Part shown: positions 3,464-43,762 of the stretch, in pieces
How the letters are laid out: each line of letters opens with the position of its first letter
How positions within the stretch are numbered: position 1 is the stretch's first letter
Source: Candidatus Staskawiczbacteria bacterium
GTDB lineage: Bacteria > Patescibacteriota > Minisyncoccia > Minisyncoccales > Staskawiczbacteraceae
Assembly (NCBI GenBank): GCA_041661545.1
Contig: JBAZUH010000001.1
Location: 467,877 to 531,876, forward strand
Direction: 5' to 3'
Length of the DNA stretch: 64,000 nucleotides
Made by a program: the position numbers and the translations under genes
The notes under the pieces: model-generated
The model's database searches: none
The model's input: the letters and a program-made list of their open reading frames with translations, nothing else
What the model was told of the DNA's origin: nothing

Positions 3464-3548
3464 GGAGGAGTCGCATAGTGGCTATTGCACCGGTCTTGAA
3501 AACCGGAATCCTTCACAGGATTCGTGAGTTCGAGTCTCACCTCCTCCG
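3464..3548 (+). tRNA. tRNA-Ser(UGA)
   Basis: Hand-folded cloverleaf: acceptor GGAGGAG/CTCCTCC, anticodon loop CTTGAAA, long variable arm, T-loop TTCGAGT. Confidence 0.9.
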
Positions 3549-3613
3549 CCTTCGCCTCGCTGAAGCTCGGCTTCGGCGAGACAAAGTCCGCCGAGTTGAA
3601 AAAAATAAAAAAT

Positions 3614-3810: not shown

Positions 3811-4548
3811 ATGAACTCAAAAAAAACTATCGTCTCGTTTATAATTTTTGTTGCTGTAATAATAGCAGGCGTTTTTGTATTTCAATCATATAAAGAAAAC
3901 AAGATTGAAAATATGTCTGGGTTGCTTAAAAAAATAACTATTGAAGACAAAAAAATAGAAGACAACACAAAGCCTTTTAAAATAAACGTTGTTTACCCCC
4001 AAATACCTGACGCAGAGGAATTTAATCAAATAGCAAGAGACCTTGTTAATAAAGAAATAGATAATTTTAAAAATAATTCTTTAGAAAACGATTCTTCTGT
4101 TGCAGAAACAGATCCAGAAAACTATGCTAGTTATCCCAGAGAATATGAGTTAAATATTTCTTATGAAAAAGGAGATGATTTAGACAACAATATTATTAGT
4201 ATAGTTTTTAACATTTATAGCTTTGAAGGTGGCGCCCATGGAGCTAGCTATTTTATACCGCTAAATTATAATTTAAAAACAAAAAGTAAAATTGCACTAG
4301 GCGATATATTCAAAAATCAGCCAAATTATGTGCAAAAAATATCTGAATTTTGCATTAAAGATTTAACAAGTCAAATAACTTCTAAATTGGGCAATACCGA
4401 GGGCACATGGATAGAACAAGGTGCTGGCCTAGAAGAAGAAAATTTTGCCGTATTTTTAATAAACAAAAAAAATATCGTTTTTTACTTTCCTCAATATCAG
4501 GTAGCTTTTGGCGCCGCCGGCGACTTCCGCGTCTCAATGCCCCGCTGA
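3811..4548 (+). CDS. DUF3298/DUF4163-like (RsiV/PdaC C-terminal-like) membrane-anchored protein
   Basis: N-terminal TM helix, FEGGAHGASY motif and C-terminal QVAFGAAGDF, as in DUF3298-type proteins. Confidence 0.65.
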   Translation: MNSKKTIVSFIIFVAVIIAGVFVFQSYKENKIENMSGLLKKITIEDKKIEDNTKPFKINVVYPQIPDAEEFNQIARDLVNKEIDNFKNNSLENDSSVAETDPENYASYPREYELNISYEKGDDLDNNIISIVFNIYSFEGGAHGASYFIPLNYNLKTKSKIALGDIFKNQPNYVQKISEFCIKDLTSQITSKLGNTEGTWIEQGAGLEEENFAVFLINKKNIVFYFPQYQVAFGAAGDFRVSMPR

Positions 4549-5380: not shown

Positions 5381-7591
5381 ATGATTACGTTATCAACAAA
5401 AATCGAAGAAATTCCAAAAGTTGGAACAGCTTACGCAAAAAAATTAAAAAAATTCGGCATAAAAACTGTGCAGGATTTGCTTTTTTATTTTCCTGCAAGA
5501 TATGACGATTTTTCAGAAATAATTTCTATTAAAAATGCCAAACAAAGATTAGGCGATACTGTTTGTGTGCAAGGAAGAATTACAAATATAGAAAGCACTC
5601 ATACTTTTAAAAAGTTTATGAACTTAACCGAGGTAACCATACAAGACGACACCGCAGAAATTAATGTTGTTTGGTTTAACCAGCCATATTTAGCAAAATC
5701 ACTCAAAGAAGATGATTTTATTTGTGTAGCTGGAAAAATAAGTTTGGGCAAAGATGGTATTTATTTTAACAGCCCAGCATATGAACGAATAAACCAAACA
5801 GCTGAAAAAGAAGAACTTACTCATACCGGTAGAATTGTGCCAGTTTATGCAGAAACAAGAGGTGTTACCTCGCGCTGGCTAAGATATGTAATAAAACCTT
5901 TGCTTTATCAATTTTGTGACCAAATACAAGAATCTTTACCAAAAGAAATCATAAAAAAATATAAATTTTTGCCTATACAAGAAGCTGTTTGGCAGTTACA
6001 CTTTCCCGATTCTTTTGAACATGCAGATGCTGCCAAAGCTAGATTTTCTTTTGAAGAATTATTTTTAATTCAACTTAATGTTTTAAAAGAAAAAATAAAA
6101 CTAATGGTAAAAAAGGCCCACGCCTGCCCAATGGATAATGACTTATTAAAAAAATTTACCGATTCTTTACCATTTCAGCTTACAGATTCACAAAAAAAAT
6201 GTGCCTATGCTATTTTAAAAGATTTAGAAAAAACAGTTCCAATGTCGCGGTTGCTAGAAGGAGATGTTGGAAGCGGTAAAACAGTTGTAGCAACAATGGC
6301 TATATTAAATGTGGTAAAAAGTAAACCAAACCTGCCTGCCGGCAGGCAGGTAGCTTTTATGGCACCAACAGAAATTTTAGCAAAACAACATTTTAAATCT
6401 GTTTCTGAAATGCTAAAACCATTTAATATTACCGTGGGCATGCTAACCGGCAAAGATGCTAGAATTTTTAGAGATGGCGAGGTTTTTGAAGTTTCTAAAA
6501 AAAGTTTTAACGGCGATTTAGAAAACGGGCAAATAGACGTGGCTATTGGCACACACTCTTTAATTCAAAAAAACATAAATTTTAAAGATTTAGCCTTAGT
6601 AGTTTTAGATGAACAACATCGTTTTGGCGTAGAACAAAGGGATCACTTAATAAAAAATAAAAAACTCGTGCCCCATTTATTATCTATGACTGCAACTCCA
6701 ATTCCTAGAACCCTGGCTTTAACTGTTTATGGCGATTTAGATCTATCTTTAATTGATGAAATGCCAGCTAACAGAAAAAAAATAAAAACAGTTATTGTTG
6801 AGCCTTCTCAAAGACAGGAAGCTTACAATTTTATTAAAAAAGAAGTAAGTGAGGGCAAAGGAGTTTTTGTTATTTTCCCTAAAATAGAAAGCGCTGCTTC
6901 AAAATTAGCTGAAACAATAAAAGAAAAAGGCGGAGTTATTGGTTCGGCAGGGTTTAATGTGCAAAACTATTCCCCGCTTTCTTTATCATCACTGGCTATT
7001 AACGAGGTTAAGGCTTTGAAAGAAGAGTATGAAAAATTATCAAAAGAAGTTTTTCCAGATTTACGAATAACTATGCTTCATGGAAAAATGAAATCCCCAG
7101 AAAAAGAAAGAATTATGTTAGATTTTAAGAGAGGCGAAATTGATATTTTACTTTCTACTTCGGTAGTAGAAGTTGGAGTTGATGTTCCAAGAGCTACTAT
7201 TATGATGATTGAAGGGGCTGAACGTTTTGGACTTAGCCAACTTCATCAGTTTCGCGGACGAGTTGGCCGAAGCGATATGCAATCTTATTGTTTTTTATTT
7301 ACCACAGACCCTAGTATGCTAAACAGAAAAAGATTAAAAGCCTTAGTAGAATCAAATAATGGCTTTGAATTAGCTGAAAAAGATTTGGAAATAAGGGGCC
7401 CAGGAAGTCTTTATGGCACACAGCAATGGGGCATTCCCGATATGGCTATGCAGGGTTTAAGTAATATATTTTTAGTTGAAAAAACACGAGCTGCTGCCAA
7501 AGAACTTTTAGAAAAAGACCCTGCGCTAAAAGATTACCCCGAGCTAAAAGAAAGATTAAAAGAGTTTGAAAAAAGAATACATTTTGAATAA
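5381..7591 (+). CDS. recG: ATP-dependent DNA helicase RecG
   Basis: GDVGSGKT (Walker A), DEQHRFG, MTATPIPRT, QLHQFRGRVGR, and an N-terminal wedge/OB region. It carries an in-frame palindrome insertion (LPAGRQV). Confidence 0.95.
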   Translation: MITLSTKIEEIPKVGTAYAKKLKKFGIKTVQDLLFYFPARYDDFSEIISIKNAKQRLGDTVCVQGRITNIESTHTFKKFMNLTEVTIQDDTAEINVVWFNQPYLAKSLKEDDFICVAGKISLGKDGIYFNSPAYERINQTAEKEELTHTGRIVPVYAETRGVTSRWLRYVIKPLLYQFCDQIQESLPKEIIKKYKFLPIQEAVWQLHFPDSFEHADAAKARFSFEELFLIQLNVLKEKIKLMVKKAHACPMDNDLLKKFTDSLPFQLTDSQKKCAYAILKDLEKTVPMSRLLEGDVGSGKTVVATMAILNVVKSKPNLPAGRQVAFMAPTEILAKQHFKSVSEMLKPFNITVGMLTGKDARIFRDGEVFEVSKKSFNGDLENGQIDVAIGTHSLIQKNINFKDLALVVLDEQHRFGVEQRDHLIKNKKLVPHLLSMTATPIPRTLALTVYGDLDLSLIDEMPANRKKIKTVIVEPSQRQEAYNFIKKEVSEGKGVFVIFPKIESAASKLAETIKEKGGVIGSAGFNVQNYSPLSLSSLAINEVKALKEEYEKLSKEVFPDLRITMLHGKMKSPEKERIMLDFKRGEIDILLSTSVVEVGVDVPRATIMMIEGAERFGLSQLHQFRGRVGRSDMQSYCFLFTTDPSMLNRKRLKALVESNNGFELAEKDLEIRGPGSLYGTQQWGIPDMAMQGLSNIFLVEKTRAAAKELLEKDPALKDYPELKERLKEFEKRIHFE

Positions 7592-21269: not shown

Positions 21270-22442
21270 ATGAAAATCCTATCAATAGAAACATCTTGCG
21301 ACGACACAGGAATTGCCGTTTTAGAAATCTCAAAAAATGGCGATTTTAACATTTTATCAAATATTGTTGCTTCTCAAATAAAAGTTCACCAAAAATATGG
21401 CGGGGTTTATCCTGCAATGGCAAAAAGAGAACACCAAAAAAATTTAATACCAACCTTTATTAAAGCCCTAAGAAAATCTAATTTACTAAAAAATAACGAG
21501 CTAAAACAAAATTTTGATTTTCAAAGTTTAAATAATATTTTAGAACGTGAGCCAGAACTATACAAAAACTTAGTTTCTTTTTTAAAAAAATACACAAAAC
21601 CAAACATAGATTTAATTGCTGTAACTAATGGCCCAGGTTTAGAGCCATGTTTATGGGTTGGAGTTAATTTTGCAAAAGCTATTTCTTTTGCATGGAATAT
21701 TCCCGTTGTGCCAGCAAATCATATTGAAGGTCATATTTTAGTTAACCTTCTAAACCCTAAACCCTACACCCTAAACCCTACTCTATTCCCTGCTATTGCA
21801 TTAGTGGTAAGCGGAGGTCATACGCAAATTATTTTGGTAAAAAAGATTGGCAGCTATAAAATACTTGGCGAAACAAGAGACGATGCAGCCGGAGAATGCT
21901 TTGATAAATGTGCAAAAATTTTAGGATTAGGTTATCCTGGCGGACCAATTATTGCTAAAATGGCAGAAAAAGTCGGTGGGATGTCGGACGTCCCACCGCT
22001 TCCACGCCCAATGATTAATACAAAAGATTACGATTTTAGTTTTTCTGGATTAAAAACTGCAGTTTTATACGCAGATAGAAAAGTTGACCCTTCGACACGG
22101 CTCAGGGCGAGCTATAAACGTAAAATGTCTGCCGAAGTTCAGCAAGCCATAATTGATGTTTTAATTAAAAAAACAATTAAAGCTGTAAAAGATTTTAAAG
22201 TAAAGTCTTTAATTTTAGGAGGAGGAGTTTCAGCTAATCAAGAATTAAAAAAACAATTTCAATTAGAAATTGAAAAAAATAAACTAAAAGTTAAATTAAT
22301 ATATCCAGCGCCTAATTTATCAACAGACAACGGAGCAATGATAGCAGTTGCAGGATTTTATCACCTGCCTGCCGGCAGGCAGGTAAAAAAACTCGCCAAC
22401 TGGAAAAAAATTAATGCCAATGGTAATTTACGAATAGATTAA
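21270..22442 (+). CDS. tsaD: tRNA N6-adenosine threonylcarbamoyltransferase TsaD (Kae1/Gcp)
   Basis: ILSIETSCDDTGIAV, HIEGH, VVSGGHTQI and GGGVSAN. It carries several GC-rich in-frame inserts. Confidence 0.9.
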   Translation: MKILSIETSCDDTGIAVLEISKNGDFNILSNIVASQIKVHQKYGGVYPAMAKREHQKNLIPTFIKALRKSNLLKNNELKQNFDFQSLNNILEREPELYKNLVSFLKKYTKPNIDLIAVTNGPGLEPCLWVGVNFAKAISFAWNIPVVPANHIEGHILVNLLNPKPYTLNPTLFPAIALVVSGGHTQIILVKKIGSYKILGETRDDAAGECFDKCAKILGLGYPGGPIIAKMAEKVGGMSDVPPLPRPMINTKDYDFSFSGLKTAVLYADRKVDPSTRLRASYKRKMSAEVQQAIIDVLIKKTIKAVKDFKVKSLILGGGVSANQELKKQFQLEIEKNKLKVKLIYPAPNLSTDNGAMIAVAGFYHLPAGRQVKKLANWKKINANGNLRID

Positions 22443-25492: not shown

Positions 25493-27289
25493 ATGCCAAC
25501 GAACCAACCCCAAACCGAAACCATGAAAACCATGATCCAATTGGCGACTTCGATCGCCCTGATGATCATTCTTGGTGCCTGCGGCCCTCGAGGTAGCAGC
25601 ACCAACAACGGCGACGAGAGCGGTGACCCCGCCCTCGCGAGAATCAACAACGACCTCAACAACCTGAGCAGGCGCTCCGAAGCCGCCACCTCAACGGTGG
25701 CCGAGCGGTCAAATGACGAACGGTTTGCGGCTCTCCAGCTGCAGCTGGCCGTCATTTCAAACCAGCTCGCCGTCAGTGGCGTCGCAGTTTCGCCGGTGTC
25801 GGACACCGACGAACTCATCATCGCCTCCTCCGCAACCCCCGCCGAACGCGGCATCGTGTTGGCCGGAACCGGTGATACGGTTCCAGGTGAGAATCGACCA
25901 AGATTAGGCACAGCCGCGGGCGGATTGATTCCGTCCCAGGCCACCCAAATCCCGGTTGCCGCAACAACGCCAACTGCACCAACCCAAACCGCACCGCAGC
26001 CAACCCCAACCGCACCAGCCGCGAGAACGGTGGTCCAAGCATGGACCTACCCAGTTGCACAGGGAGACACATACGAGGGCTTAGCCAAAGCCTTCGGCAT
26101 TCCCGAAGCCGCGCTTCGGCGGGCAAACAACGACGTGGTGCTCGAAGTCGGGCGCGTAATCGTTGTACCGATGCCGTTGGACACTACCGCCACCGCCACC
26201 GCCAACAACACCGAGCTAATTCGCGAAATCCGGGGCGGCAACATCGCCATCCTGGAGGTGCTGGAGGCGCTACGGGCGCAACAACAACAGGCTCAGCAAG
26301 CGCTGGCTCAAACGGAGAGACTGGGTGACCAGTCCTTCCGCGGGGTCTCAGCGGCCGAATACGCCGCCTGCCCAACCTGCCAAGCGGCACGGCAACCGAC
26401 GTATTATGCGCCGGAGCCGTCGTACGCCCAGCCGTATCAGCAACCCTACTGTCAGCCGAGCTACGGCTACCAACGGCCATATTACCAGGACTACGGCAGT
26501 TACGGTGGTGGCTACGGTGGAGGAAACAGCATTAGTATCAACTTGTCGCAGTCGCAACAGCAACAGCAACAGGGGTACTACCCCCAGCCGTGCCCAACGC
26601 CGACACCACAACCCCAACCGTACGATCCCTGCCCACCCGGCTCGCCGAGAAATCGGCAGTTGGGTTGGCAACCAGGTGATGGCCAATGGTGGAATAACGG
26701 CACCGGCAGGAATGCCGGAGCCGTGGCAGCGAGCTTAACCCCATACAGCAGCGGGGACTACCTCGCCGCTGCAAGCAGGTCAAGCTCCTCCAGCCCATCC
26801 GTTTCGGCATTGTCGCCAGGCGGAACGCCTTCACCAACCCGCCTAAATGGGGGCCTCAGAGCTCTCAACAACGGCGGAACTGGTGCGGCACCAACAGCGC
26901 GCGGTGGTGGTTACGACTACCGTGCAGCTTTGGCCAGCAGAACTCCGGCCGCAAGTCGGAGCACCGCAACGGCCAATAAGCCGGCAAGTCGGGTACAAAC
27001 CTACAAGCCGGCGACGAAGCCGTCAACGGCACGCGCGACACCCAGTCGTGCGGCACCCAGTCATGCGACATCGAGTCGGCAGACGATGAGTCGGGCGACA
27101 CCAAGTCGTACAACGATGAGTCGTGCACCCAGTAGGACTCCGAGTCGGCAGACGATGAGGACACCCAGTCGCACTCCGAGTCGGCAAACGATGAGGACCC
27201 CGAGTCGTGCGACAGTCAGTCGGGCACCGAGTCGTGCTCCGACGATGAGTCGGGGATCGTCAAGCGGCGGCATGATGCGCCGCAGGTAA
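25493..27289 (+). CDS. GC-rich LysM-domain lipoprotein with Gln/Tyr/Pro-rich and Ser-Arg repeat regions
   Basis: Lipobox MKTMIQLATSIALMIILGAC (alternative start at 25523). LysM-like segment YPVAQGDTYEGLAKAFGIPEAALRRANNDVVLEVGRVIVVP. C-terminal TPSRQTMRTPSR repeats. The opposite-strand ORFs are GC artefacts. Confidence 0.75.
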   Translation: MPTNQPQTETMKTMIQLATSIALMIILGACGPRGSSTNNGDESGDPALARINNDLNNLSRRSEAATSTVAERSNDERFAALQLQLAVISNQLAVSGVAVSPVSDTDELIIASSATPAERGIVLAGTGDTVPGENRPRLGTAAGGLIPSQATQIPVAATTPTAPTQTAPQPTPTAPAARTVVQAWTYPVAQGDTYEGLAKAFGIPEAALRRANNDVVLEVGRVIVVPMPLDTTATATANNTELIREIRGGNIAILEVLEALRAQQQQAQQALAQTERLGDQSFRGVSAAEYAACPTCQAARQPTYYAPEPSYAQPYQQPYCQPSYGYQRPYYQDYGSYGGGYGGGNSISINLSQSQQQQQQGYYPQPCPTPTPQPQPYDPCPPGSPRNRQLGWQPGDGQWWNNGTGRNAGAVAASLTPYSSGDYLAAASRSSSSSPSVSALSPGGTPSPTRLNGGLRALNNGGTGAAPTARGGGYDYRAALASRTPAASRSTATANKPASRVQTYKPATKPSTARATPSRAAPSHATSSRQTMSRATPSRTTMSRAPSRTPSRQTMRTPSRTPSRQTMRTPSRATVSRAPSRAPTMSRGSSSGGMMRRR

Positions 27290-27318
27290 AAGCAACCGAG
27301 GGGTAGCCCCCTCAATAT

Positions 27319-27356
27319 GGGCGGTCCAACAACGATGTTGGCCGCCCCCTTTTTTT
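27319..27356 (+). terminator. Intrinsic terminator
   Basis: GGGCGGTCCAACaacgatGTTGGCCGCCCcc followed by T8. Confidence 0.8.
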
Positions 27357-27513
27357 GAGTGCGGAATATATTTTTTCCTTACCCGCACGAAACCCCTTCA
27401 CCATTTTTACTGGTGATTTTTTATTACCACAATGACAGCCGAAGGCGCTTCGCAGATATAATTTTGTATTATTTATTACACAGATGAAAATGGTGTGGGG
27501 TTGTTTCCATCTC

Positions 27514-27542
27514 TTGACACGCGTCAAGTTATATGATATAAT
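27514..27542 (+). promoter_or_regulatory. Extended -10 sigma70-type promoter of GC-rich cassette gene 2
   Basis: TTGACA (27514..27519), a 17-nt spacer, then TGaTATAAT (ending at 27542). The -35 element lies in the inverted repeat TTGACacgcGTCAA. Confidence 0.65.
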
Positions 27543-27631
27543 AAAATTATTAGATGAGCATGATCGCTCATTGAAAATTCAACCAACCCCAACCACACCA
27601 ACACCAACCGCCCAAAACAGGGTATACGATT

Positions 27632-28540
27632 ATGGCAAGCAAGAAAAAAACCTCGCCGGCAGGGACGCCGGCAACACCACCGGCGAAACCGGCCCCCCGG
27701 CGACGCCCAGCGTCGTTGGCACCGGCGGCAACATCGCCGCTCGTGGCGACGACAACCCCGACACCCCCGCTACCCGCGGGGACAATCAGGCGGACGCCGA
27801 CACCGGCGCCCTCGGGTGCCACAACCCCAACTCCAACCCCGACGCCGCCAGCGCCCACTCCGGCACCGGCACCCGCAACGTTGACGACGGTGGCAACACC
27901 GGCGACAGCACCGGTACCGCCTGCGCCAACAACCCCAGCAGTAACACCGCCATCGCCGACTCCGGCACCCGCCGTCACCCCGACCCCGCCCGCCGCGGTC
28001 ACACCGCGCAGAGCAGGGAGACGAATGGTCGTCACCCGGGTTGTAGGTTTAGTGTTCGTCGTGCTGTTGATAAAATGGGCCTTCAGGTCCGACGAACCGG
28101 CGGCAACGGCGACAACCACCAACAACGCGGCGTACGTCACGGCGTTGGAAAAAGCCACCGCGCTCCTGAAAAAGCAAGCGGTGGAAATGGACCGCCTAAC
28201 GGCGGAGGTTGAAGCCCTCAAAAAGGGCAACACAACCCCGCCCAAGGGCGGCACCACCGCTGGTACTGGTGGCACCGGTACTACCAACCCCAACCCCCAA
28301 CCCCCAACCCCAGTAAACTATCGTCGGTCGGCACCGACGATAGAATCCGCCCATGTCCGCCAACTCCAGGCGGATATCATGGCCATGAAGGTCAAAGCTG
28401 CCCGGACTGTTCGGGCAGCTGCATGGGGTCCAATGGACCCCGACTCAAGGGCAGCAGCACAAGATCAGGTCAACGCCCTTGAAGTGGAGTTGGCCAATAT
28501 GGAGGCCGTCCTGGCTCACGCCAGGGCAACAGGAATGTGA
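27632..28540 (+). CDS. GC-rich Pro/Thr/Ala-rich single-pass membrane protein with a C-terminal coiled coil
   Basis: Basic N-terminus MASKKK, a long PTPAP-rich region, TM helix MVVTRVVGLVFVVLLIKWAF, and heptad-like ALEKATALLKKQAVEMDRLTAEVEALKK. Confidence 0.7.
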   Translation: MASKKKTSPAGTPATPPAKPAPRRRPASLAPAATSPLVATTTPTPPLPAGTIRRTPTPAPSGATTPTPTPTPPAPTPAPAPATLTTVATPATAPVPPAPTTPAVTPPSPTPAPAVTPTPPAAVTPRRAGRRMVVTRVVGLVFVVLLIKWAFRSDEPAATATTTNNAAYVTALEKATALLKKQAVEMDRLTAEVEALKKGNTTPPKGGTTAGTGGTGTTNPNPQPPTPVNYRRSAPTIESAHVRQLQADIMAMKVKAARTVRAAAWGPMDPDSRAAAQDQVNALEVELANMEAVLAHARATGM

Positions 28541-28563
28541 GAGGTTCTACCCCTCTCACTTAT

Positions 28564-28610
28564 GCGCCCCGAGATCGCCTAGCCAGCGAAATCGAGGGCG
28601 CCCTTTTTTT
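28564..28610 (+). terminator. Intrinsic terminator
   Basis: GCGCCCCGAGAT...ATCGAGGGCGC stem followed by T7. Confidence 0.65.
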
Positions 28611-31024: not shown

Positions 31025-33715
31025 CTAGTCTTTGAGGCATGCCCCCGATGCAACTTTGTCTCCTTCATCTAATCTCATTATTCTAACTCCTTGGGTATCT
31101 CGCCCTAAAAGAGATATAGACTTTATACTTGTTCTTATAACTTGCCCTTGCTGAGAAATAACAATTAAATCTTCCTCTTCTGCTACATCTTCTACAATAG
31201 CCGACATAATAATATGGCCTGTTTTGCTTGTTATTTTTGCTGTTTTAATTCCCGAGCCTCCCCTGCCTTGAGTTTTATATTGCCCAATATCTGTTCTTTT
31301 ACCATAACCATTTTCCATAACAATCAAAAAATATTTCTTTATTTTTTTTCCTTTGTCCGCCGTAGCTTCAGCGGAGGAGGATACAACATCCATTCCAATT
31401 ACTTCATCACCCTTTTTCAAACTAATACCTTTAACCCCGGCAGCTCCTCGGCCCATTGGTCTTATATCTTTTTCTTTAAATCTAATAGAAATTCCATTTT
31501 TAGTTGCTAAAATTAGGTCATCTTCACCAGTTGTTTTAACAACTTTTTTTAACGCATCTCCTTTTTCTAATTTTATAGCAATAATTCCACTTTTTCTAAC
31601 ATTTTCAAATTCTGACAAATCAGTTTTTTTGATTCTGCCATTTTTTGTAATCATTACCAAAAATTTATCTCCGCTTTGTTGCCTGGCTTGCCCCGCCGTA
31701 GCTTTAGCGGAGGAGGGCATTGGAATTAATGACAAAACTTTTTCTTCGTTTGATATTTCTAAAAAGTTTAGCAAACCTCGGCCACGAGCAACTCTATTGC
31801 CTTCTGGTATTTCATAAACTTGTGTTTGAAAAACTTTTCCAGAATCAGTAAAAAACATTAAATTATCATGGGTTGAAGCAGTCAAAAAGTGCTCTACAAT
31901 ATCATCTTGCATTGTTTTCATACCCATTAAACCCTTTCCTCCTCGTTTTTGTAATTTATAAGTAGCTGGATTTATTCTTTTTATGTAACCGCCTGTAGTT
32001 AAAGTTATAATTGTTTCTTCTAGTGGAACCAAATCAACTTCGGTAATTTCTCCCAGTTTCCCTTTAACAACTTTTGTTTTTCTTTTATCACCAAACTTTT
32101 CTCTTATATCTAAAAGCTCTTTTTTGATAATGGCTTTTAATTTTTCTGGACTTTTTAAAATAGCCAATAATTCTTTTATTGCTTCTAAAATTGCTTTTAG
32201 TTCGTCTTCTATTTTTTTTCTTTCTAATCCTGCTAATGTTTGCAACCTCATTTCTAAAATTGCTACTGCTTGCCTTTCGGTTAATTTAAATTTTTTAATT
32301 AAATTAGCTCTTGCTTCTTCTTTATCTGCAGATTTTTTAATTGTTTGAATAACTGCATCAATGTTTTTTAATGCAATCATTAAACCCTCTAATATATGGG
32401 CTCTTTCTTTGGCTTTTTCTAAATCAAATTGTGTTCTGCGAGTAACAACCTCTTCTCTGTGTTTAATAAAATATTTTAAAACATCGGCCAAAGATAAAAT
32501 TTCTGGCTGAATGCCATCTACTAATGCCAACAAATTTAAGTGAAAAGTTTTTTGAAGGCTAGTAAACTTGTATAATCTATTTAAAATTCTTTGTGGCTGA
32601 TAGCTTTTTTTAACATCAATTACAATGCGCATGCCTTCTCTGTCAGATAAATCTCTTATATCTTTTATTCCCTCAACCTTTTTTTCAGAAACCAATTCTG
32701 CCATTTGCTCTACCAAAGTAGATTTTAAAACTTGATAAGGAATTTCTGTAATTATAATTTGTTCTGCTCCATCTTTTTTTTCTACAACATCTGCTTTTCC
32801 ACGCATTAAAATAGCCCCCTTACCCTGAGAATAAGCAGTAATTATTTCTTTTTGGTCATAAATTATACCACCAGTTGGAAAATCAGGGCCCTGCACAAAT
32901 TCAAACAAATCTTCTGTTTCTGCTTTTGGGTGCTCTAGCACATATATAGAGGCATCAACAACTTCGGTTAAATTATGAGGTGGAATATTTGTTGCCATGC
33001 CAACGGCAATGCCCAAAGAACCATTTAAAAGCAATTGTGGCAATGGACTTGGCAAAACAGTTGGCTCGGTTGTCATGCCGTCATAGTTGTCAACAAATTT
33101 TACAGTATCTTTTTCAATATCTTTTAACATTTCGTCTCCTAGCTTTGTTAGCCTACATTCTGTATACCTAGCAGCAGCAGCTCCATCACCATCTATAGAA
33201 CCAAAGTTTCCTTGGCCATCTACCAATGTGTATCGCATATTAAAATCTTGCGCCATACGCACCAAACTTTCATAAACAGCTGTATCACCATGAGGGTGAT
33301 AACTTTTCAAAACCTCTCCAACTACCGCCATAGACTTTCTGTGTTTTGTGTTAGACCTTAAACCAGATTGCATCATTGCATATAAAATTCTTCTGTGAAC
33401 TGGTTTTAAACCATCTCTAACATCGGGCAGAGCACGTGCAACAATAACCGACATTGCATAATCAATGTATGATTCTTTAAGCTCGGTTACCATTTCGCGC
33501 TGAGTCACATTTCCCCTATTACTGTCGCCATGTTTTCCATCTTCTTGAGCTTTAGCCCTCGATTTTTTTTCTTCGCCCTTTTCTTCCTTATCTCCCTTTT
33601 CTTCACTTTTTTCATCCTTCTCCTCGGCTTCCTCGCCCGCCGAAGCCTCGGCGGAGGCTGGGTCTATTTCATCGTCAAGCTCCTCGTTAGATTTTGATTT
33701 TTTTATTTTGGCCAT
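31025..33715 (-). CDS. gyrA: DNA gyrase subunit A
   Basis: YAMSVIVARALPDVRDGLKPVHRRILY and C-terminal beta-pinwheel repeats. There is an acidic N-terminal extension and three in-frame GC-rich hairpin inserts. Confidence 0.95.
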   Translation of the reverse strand: MAKIKKSKSNEELDDEIDPASAEASAGEEAEEKDEKSEEKGDKEEKGEEKKSRAKAQEDGKHGDSNRGNVTQREMVTELKESYIDYAMSVIVARALPDVRDGLKPVHRRILYAMMQSGLRSNTKHRKSMAVVGEVLKSYHPHGDTAVYESLVRMAQDFNMRYTLVDGQGNFGSIDGDGAAAARYTECRLTKLGDEMLKDIEKDTVKFVDNYDGMTTEPTVLPSPLPQLLLNGSLGIAVGMATNIPPHNLTEVVDASIYVLEHPKAETEDLFEFVQGPDFPTGGIIYDQKEIITAYSQGKGAILMRGKADVVEKKDGAEQIIITEIPYQVLKSTLVEQMAELVSEKKVEGIKDIRDLSDREGMRIVIDVKKSYQPQRILNRLYKFTSLQKTFHLNLLALVDGIQPEILSLADVLKYFIKHREEVVTRRTQFDLEKAKERAHILEGLMIALKNIDAVIQTIKKSADKEEARANLIKKFKLTERQAVAILEMRLQTLAGLERKKIEDELKAILEAIKELLAILKSPEKLKAIIKKELLDIREKFGDKRKTKVVKGKLGEITEVDLVPLEETIITLTTGGYIKRINPATYKLQKRGGKGLMGMKTMQDDIVEHFLTASTHDNLMFFTDSGKVFQTQVYEIPEGNRVARGRGLLNFLEISNEEKVLSLIPMPSSAKATAGQARQQSGDKFLVMITKNGRIKKTDLSEFENVRKSGIIAIKLEKGDALKKVVKTTGEDDLILATKNGISIRFKEKDIRPMGRGAAGVKGISLKKGDEVIGMDVVSSSAEATADKGKKIKKYFLIVMENGYGKRTDIGQYKTQGRGGSGIKTAKITSKTGHIIMSAIVEDVAEEEDLIVISQQGQVIRTSIKSISLLGRDTQGVRIMRLDEGDKVASGACLKD

Positions 33716-36193: not shown

Positions 36194-37267
36194 ATGATAA
36201 AAGATACAAAAAAAATAGACGACGCAAATGCCCCTCTTAATATTGGTTCAACCGTAGAGGGCAAAGTTGTGGCCAGAGATAGGTCTTCTCTTTATATTGA
36301 TTTAGGAATTCACGGCACTGGTATAATATATGGCCGAGAATTTTACAATGTAAAAGATATGGTAAAAAATTTAGAAACAGGAGATAAAGTTTTTGCCAAA
36401 ATTGTTGAAATGGAAAATGATGAAGGCTATAAAGAGCTTTCATTAAGAGATGCCACCAAAGAAATTGGCTGGCAAAGATTAAAAGATTTACGAGATGCTG
36501 GCACAATTTTAAGTGTTAGAATAAGTGGCGTAAACAAAGGCGGATTATTAACAAGTTTAGACGGCATACAAGCATTTTTGCCTGTTTCTCAATTGTCTGC
36601 TGAGCACTACCCTCGCGTGGCTGATGCTGACAAAGCAAAAATTTTAAAAGAATTACAAAAATTTATTGGCAAAACATTAGAAGTAAAAGTTTTAGATTTG
36701 TTAGCTGAAGAAAATAAATTAATTCTTTCAGAAAAAGCCAAGTCCGAAGAGAAAACAAAAGAAACTCTAAAAAATTATAAGAAAGGTGATATTGTTGAAG
36801 GACAAATAACTGGTATTGCTGATTTTGGAGCTTTTATAAAATTTCCATTTCCAATAGAAGATGAAAATGAACAAATTGAAGGATTAATTCATATTTCAGA
36901 ATTAGATTGGCAATTGGTTGAAAACCCAACCGAAGTTGTAAAAGTTGGTGAAGCTGTTAAAGCTCAAATTATCAACATAAACAATAATCAAGTTTTTCTT
37001 TCATTAAAATCTTTAAAGAAAAATCCTTGGGAAGAAATTGAAAAAGAATATAAAAAAGACGATGTTATAAAAGGAAAGGTAACTAAGTTTTCAACATTTG
37101 GAGCTTTTGTAGAAATTGCGCCAAAAATTAGAGGGCTTTGCCACATTTCTGAATTTGAGAGCAAAGAAAAAATGGAAGAACAATTAGAAATTGGCAAAAC
37201 TTATAACTTTCAAGTTATATCAATAGAACCAAGAGAACACAGAATGAGTTTAAAACTCGTAAAATAA
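36194..37267 (+). CDS. rpsA: 30S ribosomal protein S1 (short, four S1 domains)
   Basis: Four repeats of the S1 OB-fold pattern (GxxVxGxVxxxxxxGxFVxL...G..HISE). Confidence 0.85.
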   Translation: MIKDTKKIDDANAPLNIGSTVEGKVVARDRSSLYIDLGIHGTGIIYGREFYNVKDMVKNLETGDKVFAKIVEMENDEGYKELSLRDATKEIGWQRLKDLRDAGTILSVRISGVNKGGLLTSLDGIQAFLPVSQLSAEHYPRVADADKAKILKELQKFIGKTLEVKVLDLLAEENKLILSEKAKSEEKTKETLKNYKKGDIVEGQITGIADFGAFIKFPFPIEDENEQIEGLIHISELDWQLVENPTEVVKVGEAVKAQIININNNQVFLSLKSLKKNPWEEIEKEYKKDDVIKGKVTKFSTFGAFVEIAPKIRGLCHISEFESKEKMEEQLEIGKTYNFQVISIEPREHRMSLKLVK

Positions 37268-38075: not shown

Positions 38076-38103
38076 TTGACATCTTTCTATTTTTATGTAT
38101 AAT
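38076..38103 (+). promoter_or_regulatory. Sigma70-type promoter of the GC-rich 503-aa gene
   Basis: TTGACA (38076..38081), a 16-nt spacer, then TATAAT (38098..38103). Confidence 0.65.
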
Positions 38104-38207
38104 TAAACTAGCTCATTTACTCATATAACGTTTTGATAAACACCGTCAGCCTACAGACACCCAACAAACCAACAACACCAACAACCGCCCGCAAGGGCCC
38201 TACCAAA

Positions 38208-39716
38208 GTGAAAGCAACCAAAAAAGCCGCGAAACAAGCGGCAGACACCAACGCCGTGCAAGCGGCGCCCGCAGAAGAAACCACCCCCGTGGTGGCCACC
38301 AAGACCAAGCCAGTTGCCAAGGGTGGCGCGAAAGCCCGCCCCAAAACGACTGTGCTCAGCAGTGCCAACTCCAACCCGTTCGCCAACTTGGGTGACGCCT
38401 TGACCGAATTGAGCCTCGGCGTGCCCGACCTCGACTCGCTCGCCGACGTTGACAGCGTTGGGCAAGGCCTCGAGGCCAAGAAGGCCGCCGCCGTCAAAGT
38501 GCGCGAAGGCATCGCCAATGCCCTCAAGTTCCTGCTTGGTCTTTTCCGCCGGCTTGCCGGTTGCGAAGACCGCATCGAGAAGCGGTTCATCCAGGAGGAG
38601 CTCCAAGAGTCGGAAGACAATGCCCGGGGTTACTTGGGCAAAGTGCTCAACCTCAAGGGCGCCCTCCGCACCATCGCCGCCGGCACGTACCTCAAAACCG
38701 TGCTCACCATGGACTACTCCTCGCCCGACGAGGTCGCCATGATGCTCCGGAATTTGGTGGACAATGGGCTCATCGTCTCCAAGGGTGAAGGCCCCTGCGT
38801 GACCATTGGGTATCAGGTGTATCGCCTTGGTGACTTCGGCTTCGACGCCGAGGATGTCAGGGAAATCACCGGCGTGATTGAGCAGTTCTCCCGCGTGGTG
38901 AAAACGAAGGAACGCGAACGGAGGGCGCAACTCCAGAAGGAAATCGCGGGGCAATCCCAGATTTCCCTGCAAGAAGCGCTTGACGGGAAAACCGGCAAAT
39001 GCCTGGTGACTGTTCCGGCCGAATCGTTCATCGACCGCTCCACCAAAAAGCCCGTGTGGCGTGGAGGTGGCGAGGTCCTATTCGACTTTGCCGACAAGCT
39101 CATCAAACCAATCCGCGCCAGCGGGTCGGTGGAACGCTTGGTCGGCGACCTCGCTGACCGTGGTGGGAGAATCACCCGCCACTCGCTTACGTGGGAGAAG
39201 GCCTCCGGACTGAACGGACTGGCGCAGGGCATCCAGCGGAAACTGGATGTCTCATGGAGTGATGCCCAGGATTTGGCCCGCGACTTCCTCACCATTTGGC
39301 ACCTCCTCAACCGTGGCATTCGCCACGCCGAGGAAGTCGTCAAGCAGGCTGACGAGCTGGCCCAACTGACTGCGAAGGCCGAGATCACCGCCGTGCAGTT
39401 CTTCGGGCTCAACGGCACCAAGGACGGCAAGCCCATCGAGGGCAAGCCTGCTCTCCTGCAACTCCAGGGAGTGGTCCGCTTGGAGGACCGCAACCTGTAC
39501 AATCCGTTCTTTCTCGCCAGGAGGATGACGGAAGAAGGCAAGGAGCTCGTCGAGGCGCTGGAAATTCCGGCATACCTCGAGGGATACCTTGAAACCGGGA
39601 AGAAATTCCCAATCGATCGCTGGAACACCCCTGTCGGCGACCTGATTCAAAAGATCAAGGGGCAAACCGAGATGACTGTCGCGACCGCGGCCGCCATCGC
39701 CAACCCGGCCGAGTGA
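38208..39716 (+). CDS. GC-rich protein of unknown function with a Lys/Ala-rich (histone H1-like) N-terminus
   Basis: The long ORF opens at a TTG at 38133. GTG at 38208 is favoured because the CCAAC-rich leader plus AAGGG resembles the leader of 27632. Amino-acid composition is balanced on the + strand. The minus-strand ORFs are GC artefacts. Confidence 0.7.
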   Translation: MKATKKAAKQAADTNAVQAAPAEETTPVVATKTKPVAKGGAKARPKTTVLSSANSNPFANLGDALTELSLGVPDLDSLADVDSVGQGLEAKKAAAVKVREGIANALKFLLGLFRRLAGCEDRIEKRFIQEELQESEDNARGYLGKVLNLKGALRTIAAGTYLKTVLTMDYSSPDEVAMMLRNLVDNGLIVSKGEGPCVTIGYQVYRLGDFGFDAEDVREITGVIEQFSRVVKTKERERRAQLQKEIAGQSQISLQEALDGKTGKCLVTVPAESFIDRSTKKPVWRGGGEVLFDFADKLIKPIRASGSVERLVGDLADRGGRITRHSLTWEKASGLNGLAQGIQRKLDVSWSDAQDLARDFLTIWHLLNRGIRHAEEVVKQADELAQLTAKAEITAVQFFGLNGTKDGKPIEGKPALLQLQGVVRLEDRNLYNPFFLARRMTEEGKELVEALEIPAYLEGYLETGKKFPIDRWNTPVGDLIQKIKGQTEMTVATAAAIANPAE

Positions 39717-39763
39717 TCGGCCACCCTCGTAGAGCTGACTCAACCAGTTAGCCTGCGACCTAT

Positions 39764-41821: not shown

Positions 41822-41948
41822 ATTTATTTAGGCCAAGGGCGCATAGCTCCCGCCTTTGGCGAGGCTCGCCCCGCTTTGCAGGGCGGCAGTTGGCACCCTA
41901 AAGAATTTTAATAGCAATAAAAGCCGTATCTGATAAATATTCAAATAC

Positions 41949-42021
41949 GGGCGCATAGCTCAGTTGGTAGAGCGCGGAGCTTATACCTCCGTGGTCCTAG
42001 GTTCGAGTCCTAGTGCGCCCA
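41949..42021 (+). tRNA. tRNA-Ile(UAU)
   Basis: Acceptor GGGCGCA/TGCGCCC, anticodon stem-loop CGGAG-CTTATAC-CTCCG (anticodon TAT). Confidence 0.8.
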
Positions 42022-42032
42022 CTCGTTAATTC

Positions 42033-43630: not shown

Positions 43631-43689
43631 TGTGATTATCGCCTTCGCAAATTCTGGCGGGCTTTGCCCGCCGAAGCTAGCAAGCGTAG

Positions 43690-43761
43690 GCGGGTGTCGT
43701 ATAGTGGCTATTATGTAACCTTGCCAAGGTTAAGACGGCAGTTCGATTCTGCTCACCCGCT
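43690..43761 (+). tRNA. tRNA-Gly(GCC)
   Basis: Acceptor GCGGGTG/CACCCGC, anticodon stem-loop TAACC-TTGCCAA-GGTTA. Confidence 0.9.
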
Positions 43762-43762
43762 C

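Follow-up and report, generated by a model that had tools for sequence, protein, structure and literature searches.

In-frame members of a dispersed 30-nucleotide stem-loop family in the gyrA gene of a Candidatus Staskawiczbacteria bacterium

In a 64,000-nucleotide (nt) stretch of the genome of a Candidatus Staskawiczbacteria bacterium (GenBank assembly GCA_041661545.1, contig JBAZUH010000001.1, positions 467,877 to 531,876; hereafter the window), the gene for DNA gyrase subunit A (gyrA) carries three short GC-rich blocks that are translated in frame. Where do such blocks come from, and how can an essential gene accommodate them? An earlier note on this DNA had described them as three copies of a mobile or recombinogenic hairpin element filtered for frame-compatible insertions. 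Here, it is concluded with good confidence that the gyrA segments are copies of a short dispersed stem-loop repeat, similar to the REPs (repetitive extragenic palindromes), and were inserted or recombined into permissive sites of GyrA.

The host gene was identified by phmmer against Escherichia coli GyrA structures (E=4e-223), and its product is 100% identical to P0001, named DNA gyrase subunit A of Candidatus Staskawiczbacteria, which belong to the Parcubacteria within the Candidate Phyla Radiation. A scan of the window with the pattern CCGCCGWAGCNTNRGCGGAGG gave exactly three matches, all within gyrA (Table 1), compared to none in 100 dinucleotide-preserving shuffles, and the positions in the earlier note proved right within about 4 nt. 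Each block comprises 30 nt, which is exactly ten codons, and lies in codon phase 0. On the coding strand, copies 1, 2 and 3 read TCCTCCTCCGCTGAAGCTACGGCGGACAAA, CCCTCCTCCGCTAAAGCTACGGCGGGGCAA and CCAGCCTCCGCCGAGGCTTCGGCGGGCGAG, respectively, and encode the peptides SSSAEATADK (residues 779-788), PSSAKATAGQ (residues 667-676) and PASAEASAGE (residues 19-28), for which the pattern x-S-[SA]-A-[EK]-A-[ST]-A-[GD]-x can be written. The composition of the blocks is foreign to the gene. Their GC content is 0.60, 0.67 and 0.80 for copies 1, 2 and 3, versus 34% in the remaining gyrA, and the GC content at third codon positions is 0.6-0.8 versus 0.22. The codon TCC occurs six times within the blocks and at none of the 42 serine codons of gyrA outside them, ACG twice and at none of 49 threonine codons, and GCG three times, compared to 3 of 54 alanine codons outside.

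To collect the family, the genome of one representative of each GTDB species was scanned for exact matches to the 20-nt core CTYCGCTRAAGCTWCGGMGG. At least 120 matches were obtained, where about 17 would be expected by chance according to our own rough estimate. The motif occurs far more often than composition would give and is part of a dispersed family. The family consensus is 30 nt long and consists of a stem arm YCCKCC, a conserved 14-nt loop TYCGCTRAAGCTWC, the stem arm GGMGGR and an unpaired 3' tail CARG. The bases flanking the core, which were outside the search pattern, are conserved and complementary, and the columns beyond the 30-nt block are not conserved. The variable stem pairs covary (C-G 53 versus U-A 40; G-C 56 versus U-A 38), 93% of the alignment cells are paired and none of 500 shuffles reached the observed covariation score. 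GTAG occurs solely inside the family loop, where it alternates with GAAG, and the tail reads CYTG on the other strand. Searches with Rfam 15 (4227 covariance models) gave no match at E<=10 on 91 nt around copy 2 and, with a threshold of E<=1, none for the element in any of eight loci examined. Locus L200 has a near-match to Acido-Lenti-1, but away from the element and without relation to it. No published description of the family was found in a full-text literature search, the reach of which excluded most subscription journals.

A covariance model, R1, was built solely from 120 copies in other genomes. In the window, R1 matched the three gyrA copies and two copies flanking tRNA genes, five in total. 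Since a model from other genomes matches all three gyrA copies, the gyrA segments are members of the family and not look-alikes. Compared with the family consensus, the gyrA copies have TCCGC for TTCGC, which places serine instead of phenylalanine, and one mismatch in the canonical stem (CCTCC/GGCGG). When folded as single sequences, copy 1 gave a z-score of -3.0 and copies 2 and 3 gave about 0 and -0.7; these modest scores are due to the departures from the consensus, including the stem mismatch. The statement that each copy is a short GC hairpin therefore holds for the family, with its covarying stem, but not fully for copies 2 and 3 taken singly.

The family is widely distributed. Among the core matches listed are lineages of the Candidate Phyla Radiation (CPR), Alphaproteobacteria (including cultured Bradyrhizobium and Mesorhizobium), Gammaproteobacteria, Acidobacteriota, Nitrospirota, Bacteroidota, Verrucomicrobiota, Planctomycetota, Omnitrophota and Elusimicrobiota. 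Viral contigs of IMG/VR gave 42 matches, compared to none for a reversed control pattern. The consensus was not found in 5,426 E. coli genomes or in the INPHARED phages, and the sole match among PLSDB plasmids was weak, partial and located in Thermus. When related CPR loci, about 1.1 Mb in total, were searched with looser patterns, the motif was recovered in other genes and in intergenic DNA. These loci hold about 27 copies, and the window, which covers 64 kb of the 738-kb genome, holds five. Copies in the CPR loci are singletons, and those in Acidobacteriota occur as abutting inverted pairs. In L109 (3318-3375), a complete 30-nt unit is nested after GCT in the loop of another unit, and its removal restores a canonical copy; a similar nesting, apparently of three levels, is present in L094 (about 4080-4160) at the contig end. 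Tandem arrays of a 45-nt unit that contains the family loop motif (..CGCCGAAGCTTTAGCTGAGGCGAGAGAAGAGT..) were observed downstream of gyrA in a further CPR contig (L035, 6834-6959 and 7545-7670).

Read from the sequence, the consensus contains stop codons in only two of its six frames and is open in the other four. In genomes of less than 46% GC, 22 of 46 copies lie within open reading frames (ORFs) of at least 120 amino acids, among them valyl-tRNA-synthetase-like genes and a DNA-ligase-like gene as judged by conserved motifs. Of these copies, seventeen lie in ORFs of at least 299 amino acids. Eleven of the seventeen are in the sense frame P-[SA]-F-A-[KE]-A-[ST]-[AE]-[GD]-K (PSFAKATAGK), five are antisense and alanine-rich and one is in another frame; 16 of the 17 are thus in two alanine-rich frames. 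Intergenic copies showed no consistent orientation relative to the flanking genes.

The two intergenic copies of the window bear out the claim that the same family flanks tRNA genes. One is located between the genes for tRNA-Phe and tRNA-Gly and reaches with its 3' arm into the initial bases of the latter (43690-43762); the other, which is weaker and has an enlarged loop, begins within the last bases of tRNA-Ser (3464-3550) and abuts its 3' end. Across several phyla, at least eight family copies abut or overlap the ends of tRNA genes by 0-6 nt, at 5' and 3' ends alike, and in L141 a tRNA-Ala has family copies on both sides. Placement at tRNA ends is far commoner than random placement would give. 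A separate observation concerns tRNA-Ile (41949-42022): a 13-nt copy of its 5' end (GGGCGCATAGCTC) is present about 110 nt upstream (41836-41850), within a cluster of GC-rich hairpins (41831-41890).

Table 1. Positions of gyrA, of family copies and of related hairpins
Feature	Sequence	Positions	Strand	Evidence
gyrA coding sequence (896 amino acids), host of three copies	window	31025-33715	minus	ORF and phmmer against E. coli GyrA structures
Matches to CCGCCGWAGCNTNRGCGGAGG	window	31357-31377, 31693-31713, 33637-33657	plus	pattern scan of window
Copy 1, TCCTCC-TCCGCTGAAGCTAC-GGCGGA-CAAA	window	31352-31381	minus	R1, 45.6 bits, E=8e-9
Copy 2, CCCTCC-TCCGCTAAAGCTAC-GGCGGG-GCAA	window	31688-31717	minus	R1, 38.6 bits, E=4e-7
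Copy 3, CCAGCC-TCCGCCGAGGCTTC-GGCGGG-CGAG	window	33632-33661	minus	R1, 28.3 bits, E=1.2e-4
Intergenic copy between tRNA-Phe and tRNA-Gly	window	43660-43697	minus	R1, 26.5 bits, E=3e-4
Weaker intergenic copy with enlarged loop	window	3542-3588	plus	R1, 18.1 bits, E=0.035
tRNA-end copies	L141	758-899		
tRNA-end copies	L143	2679-2788		
tRNA-end copies	L147	6314-6415		
tRNA-end copies	L148	1968-2090		
tRNA-end copies	L088	2110-2212		
tRNA-end copies	L095	2854-2961		
tRNA-end copies	L159	5503-5621		
tRNA-end copies	L090	6649-6766		
Hairpin copies at the Y1 homologue	L049	28-48, 358-378, 568-588, 1094-1114		

In GyrA, none of the three segments aligns to conserved residues. Compared with E. coli GyrA, the two segments of the C-terminal domain fall opposite alignment gaps, one of 10 residues (copy 2) and one of 11 (copy 1), and copy 3 lies in an N-terminal extension, residues 1 to about 60-70, that has no E. 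coli counterpart. All three sites are length-variable in an alignment of 120 relatives (80-92% identity). An AlphaFold model, built on the sequences of 77 of these relatives and with a mean predicted local distance difference test (pLDDT) score of 55, was used solely for strand and coil assignment in the C-terminal domain, across which it has a clear strand pattern despite the low overall confidence. In this model, copy 1 is in predicted coil between strands 772-778 and 794-800, with pLDDT <50 at 781-789, and copy 2 in predicted coil between strands 660-666 and 685-690, with pLDDT <50 at 668-680. Copies 1 and 2 are thereby predicted to occupy equivalent loops of neighbouring blades of the C-terminal beta-pinwheel. 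Residues 1-71 are predicted coil (pLDDT about 26), which would place copy 3 in an acidic, disordered N-terminal extension. Mapping of every GC-rich island in gyrA of 69 relatives was non-discriminating, because conserved Gly/Ala/Arg motifs are GC-rich as well.

The presence of the segments varies among close relatives. In a tree of conserved columns, the window GyrA clusters with P0002, P0003 and P0004, at amino-acid distances of 4.6-6.1%. P0002 and P0003 have none of the three segments and P0004 has only the one at the position of copy 2 (site 2; PASAKASAGQARQQS). Segments like that of copy 1 (site 1; SSFAEATEDKGKK and variants) were found in P0057, P0008, P0016, P0007, P0067, P0076 and P0052, dispersed over the GyrA tree, and P0057, P0008, P0016 and others have site 1 only. 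L201, the DNA of P0002, is the nearest relative with DNA (92% amino-acid identity in GyrA, 84% nucleotide identity in gyrA). The family model gave no match in its gyrA, L201 lacks all three copies, and copy 3 is an exact ten-codon (30-nt) indel relative to L201 and a ten-codon indel relative to P0002 and P0003. The presence/absence polymorphism that the earlier note had proposed to look for is thus found. Other relatives carry other sequences at these places: in L005 and L006, site 1 is occupied by a different GC hairpin, CCCCGTCGAATGACGGGG (APSNDGV), the gyrA N-terminus of L004 has a hairpin CTGCCTGCCGGCAGGCAGG (LPAGRQ), and variants of the 30-nt family are present in L002 and L003 at an N-terminal position different from that of copy 3. 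The gyrA copies of relatives including L002 and L008 are partly AT-decayed.

Several observations weigh against insertion of a mobile repeat. Three of the five window copies are within one gene; the stem of the gyrA copies is mismatched, and for two of these copies the fold does not surpass that of shuffled sequence. The family alignment shows neither a consensus nor a duplication of the target site, and the 30-nt family has no linked gene for a transposase or another mobilising enzyme. The Y1 transposase gene that is present in L201 (see below) is flanked by a different hairpin, GGTGGGACGTC-N-GACGTCCCACC, which is also inserted in-frame inside it, and the window region syntenic to L201 contains no Y1 gene. 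Compared with L201, site 1 is a gap of nine codons, i.e., 27 and not 30 nt, and site 2 is of equal length and unrelated sequence, which is a replacement and no simple insertion. The patchy occurrence of the site-1 allele on the GyrA tree may be due to lineages having exchanged loop segments by recombination, and not to insertion having occurred repeatedly. In addition, the derived bases that copies 1 and 2 have in common, the TCCGC variant and the CCTCC/GGCGG mismatch, may be explained by copying between the two gyrA loops.

An alternative is that the copies arrived mainly by homologous recombination or gene conversion, as opposed to de novo insertion in this lineage, with loop cassettes being swapped between gyrA alleles of related Staskawiczbacteria and between the two equivalent loops within the gene. 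In its favor are the dispersal of both the site-1 allele and the other hairpin allele (AIAPSNDGVK) across the GyrA tree, the occurrence of site 2 in P0004 and not in the closer P0002 and P0003, the same-length replacement at site 2 and the bases common to copies 1 and 2. However, recombination accounts for the spread and not for the origin of the segments, and an insertion is still required somewhere. For the copy at the N-terminus, a clean indel is seen, and its position differs from that of the N-terminal copies of other relatives; the same unit also occurs in unrelated genes and in intergenic DNA. As the main route, recombination is therefore considered improbable, and it may explain part of the distribution, between gyrA alleles or between the two equivalent loops.

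Somewhat less credible still is the alternative that the hairpins are retained as cis-elements of gyrA, acting either as translation pauses in the mRNA between blades or as REP-like DNA sites bound by gyrase or another regulator. E. coli REPs are gyrase-binding sites. Two copies are at equivalent loops of consecutive blades, gyrA alone holds three of the five copies in the window, and Di Nocera et al. (2013, PMC3733652) reported that intragenic REPs with a GTAG or CGTC tag favor genes for the replication and repair of DNA as well as those for tRNA synthetases. A retained function would, however, be difficult to reconcile with a relative of 92% amino-acid identity that lacks all three copies, with sites that are present or absent independently among relatives, with the degraded stems of the gyrA copies, and with the AT-decayed copies in L002 and L008, which are as expected without structural constraint. 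Very hard to uphold is the view that slippage or point mutation gave rise to the segments in situ as ordinary loops of low complexity, rich in Ala, Ser and Gly, their GC-rich palindromic look being a by-product of GCN, TCN and GGN codons: the loops are hypervariable in all relatives and the other GC-rich islands of gyrA are explained by conserved Gly/Ala/Arg/Pro motifs (MGRGAAGV, QGRGGSG), but a model from unrelated genomes matches all three copies (E=8e-9 to 1e-4), the blocks use codons (TCC, ACG, GCG) that gyrA otherwise avoids, the same 30-nt block is intergenic beside tRNAs in the window and across phyla, and in the comparison with the nearest relative one copy is an indel of exactly 30 nt.

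According to the preferred explanation, that of a dispersed REP-like repeat, copies of the 30-nt unit would have been inserted, or recombined in from other copies, at three GyrA sites that tolerate extra residues. Since the unit has a length of exactly ten codons and no stop codon in four of its six frames, such an insertion would leave the gene unbroken. Selection would retain only those insertions that lie at permissive sites and whose frame yields a small, polar peptide rich in Ala, Ser, Thr and Gly, and the inserted copies would afterwards drift under the AT-biased mutation of the host. The intragenic copies are probably without a function of their own in gyrA. Family membership, foreign composition, variable coil sites, absence from the nearest relative, the 30-nt unit and the frame bias are established; that the copies arrived by a transposition-like event is what we infer. 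Of the original idea of a mobile element filtered for frame, the filter is supported by the 30-nt length, the four open frames and the preference for alanine-rich frames, and mobility is the part that would follow from this inferred event.

Which enzyme could mobilise the unit? By analogy with REP-associated tyrosine transposase (RAYT) systems and with IS200/IS605, a single-strand HUH (Y1) transposase would be the likeliest candidate, although this assignment is doubtful; the combination of a hairpin and an unpaired conserved tetranucleotide recalls the substrates of such enzymes. ORFs between paired copies at four loci are ordinary genes, with no transposase apparent from their translations. 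A tblastn search of 1.95 Mb with an unverified IS608 TnpA query gave no match and is uninformative. In L201, a gene for a 242-residue RAYT-like Y1 (HUH) transposase (34-762) is located two genes upstream of gyrA. The protein scored 31 bits against Pfam Y1_Tnp and 31 bits against the NCBIfam model for the REP-associated tyrosine transposase, the latter below the 80-bit cut-off. Copies of its flanking hairpin include those at 236-259 and 775-799, an arrangement that resembles a REPtron. A RAYT-like Y1 homologue is also found upstream of gyrA in L049 (436-1062), the GyrA of which is 57% identical to that of the window, and is flanked by RACGAGGGTC-N-GACCCTCGTW (Table 1). The hairpins of both Y1 genes are lineage-specific and have a stem of 10-12 bp. 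Judged from these arrangements, REP/RAYT-type systems appear to exist in these bacteria, with putative lineage-specific cognate repeats other than the 30-nt family.

Further hairpin families are found in-frame in core genes of the window. A perfect GC palindrome, CCTGCCTGCCGGCAGGCAGG, is present at 6331-6354 in recG (ORF 5381-7591) and encodes LPAGRQ, a peptide that also occurs near the C-terminus of TsaD (ORF 21270-22442) and at the GyrA N-terminus of L004 (MAGEKDLPAGRQ). In tsaD, a hairpin GGTGGGAYGTC-N-GACGTCCCACC at 21985-22009 encodes VGGMSDVPP; the same hairpin flanks the Y1 gene of L201. At least three hairpin families are therefore present in-frame in gyrA, recG and tsaD.

Some further observations were made in the window and in related loci. 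Two CPR genes, a valyl-tRNA-synthetase-like ORF in L110 (2-2629) and an ORF in L137 (3-1667), contain the 30-nt family together with further GC-rich peptide words, for example CHCEEWSEAERRGNPENRASDSGLLRVARNDK and VIPAEAGIHGSR; these words in aminoacyl-tRNA-synthetase-like genes suggest additional in-frame hairpin families. A gene like that of ribosomal protein S1, adjacent to the gyrA region, has one variable loop when the window (36194-37267) is compared with L003 (6299-7378) and L056 (about 5655-5677), with the versions FPFPIEDENEQ, FPADAEDKNDQ and FPSSAKAKKDKEEQ; the L056 version is a weak family match. The gyrA matches in L014, L035-L037, L056, L061 and L063-L065 are 3.6-4.0 kb long, about 1.2 kb above the others, and P0110 (1279 amino acids) contains the intein Pfam domain PF14890. 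Inteins probably interrupt gyrA in these CPR lineages with a longer gene. Finally, the window has about 31-41% GC except for two islands of 55-61% GC (25500-28600 and 38100-39750), in a genome of about 35% GC. The islands encode low-complexity ORFs rich in Pro, Thr and Ala, with a LysM domain in 25493-27289 and no Pfam match for the 527-residue ORF at 38133-39716, and they have the look of foreign sequence acquired recently or of a chimeric assembly.

The 30-nt family resembles known systems in part. Like intragenic REPs, which are GC-rich stem-loops of 20-40 nt with an unpaired conserved tetranucleotide at one end, it has a short stem-loop unit (30 nt, 6-bp stem). It is similarly dispersed, the REPs being mostly intergenic with some copies in-frame, and is found in gyrA and in valyl-tRNA-synthetase-like genes; it also forms inverted dimers in some genomes, as REPs do. 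REPs reach a high copy number of tens to hundreds per genome. In contrast to the GTAG or CGTC tag of REPs, the family carries CARG, located at its 3' end. Lineage specificity and loops of 2-3 nt are usual among REP families (PMC3733652), whereas the loop of the 30-nt family has 14 nt and is conserved in sequence across phyla. No RAYT gene was found adjoining its copies, and unlike extragenic REPs it is often found within genes, with three of the five window copies inside gyrA and nearly half of those in low-GC genomes within ORFs. None of its peptides is present in the supplementary lists of intragenic REP peptides of PMC3733652. With the Rickettsia palindromic elements (Ogata et al., 2000, as cited in PMC3733652), it has in common in-frame palindromes in essential genes of a small AT-rich genome, an added peptide at fold-tolerant positions and further copies in non-coding DNA. 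Those elements, however, are about 100-150 nt long and restricted to Rickettsia, compared with 30 nt (ten amino acids), an unrelated sequence and many phyla for the family studied here. The inverted pairs in Acidobacteriota and the RAYT-like Y1 genes flanked by GC hairpins in this clade recall the REPIN/RAYT system (Bertels and Rainey, 2011, PMC3116915). In contrast to that system, the RAYT-like genes of the clade are flanked by hairpins other than the 30-nt family, and the CPR copies are single. The GC clusters of yeast mitochondria, where the genome is very AT-rich, are likewise mobile palindromes of short length and high GC content that are occasionally tolerated in-frame in coding sequence. 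They belong to another domain of life and have another sequence, and the likeness is one of general description only.

The most unexpected features are the broad, sequence-conserved distribution of the family and its association with tRNA ends. The loop is conserved across distant phyla and the family abuts tRNA genes; among REP-like repeats this is uncommon, and it points towards recognition by a conserved mechanism. Tentatively, the gyrA copies could be members of an undescribed, phylum-spanning 30-nt hairpin element, the loop of which would be recognised by a widely shared machinery and which would land precisely at tRNA gene ends; with its length of exactly ten codons, it would provide essential proteins with a general supply of ten-residue cassettes. 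Rickettsia and a few REP-rich bacteria are known to carry palindromic insertions in-frame in essential genes, and no description for CPR bacteria was found in the literature searched. Since at least three hairpin families are in-frame in core genes of the window, hairpin repeats appear to contribute regularly to differences in protein length in minimal CPR genomes. In-frame hairpins explain many of the odd GC-rich words in CPR proteins, and such blocks can mislead alignments, gene trees and domain boundaries for proteins derived from metagenomes.

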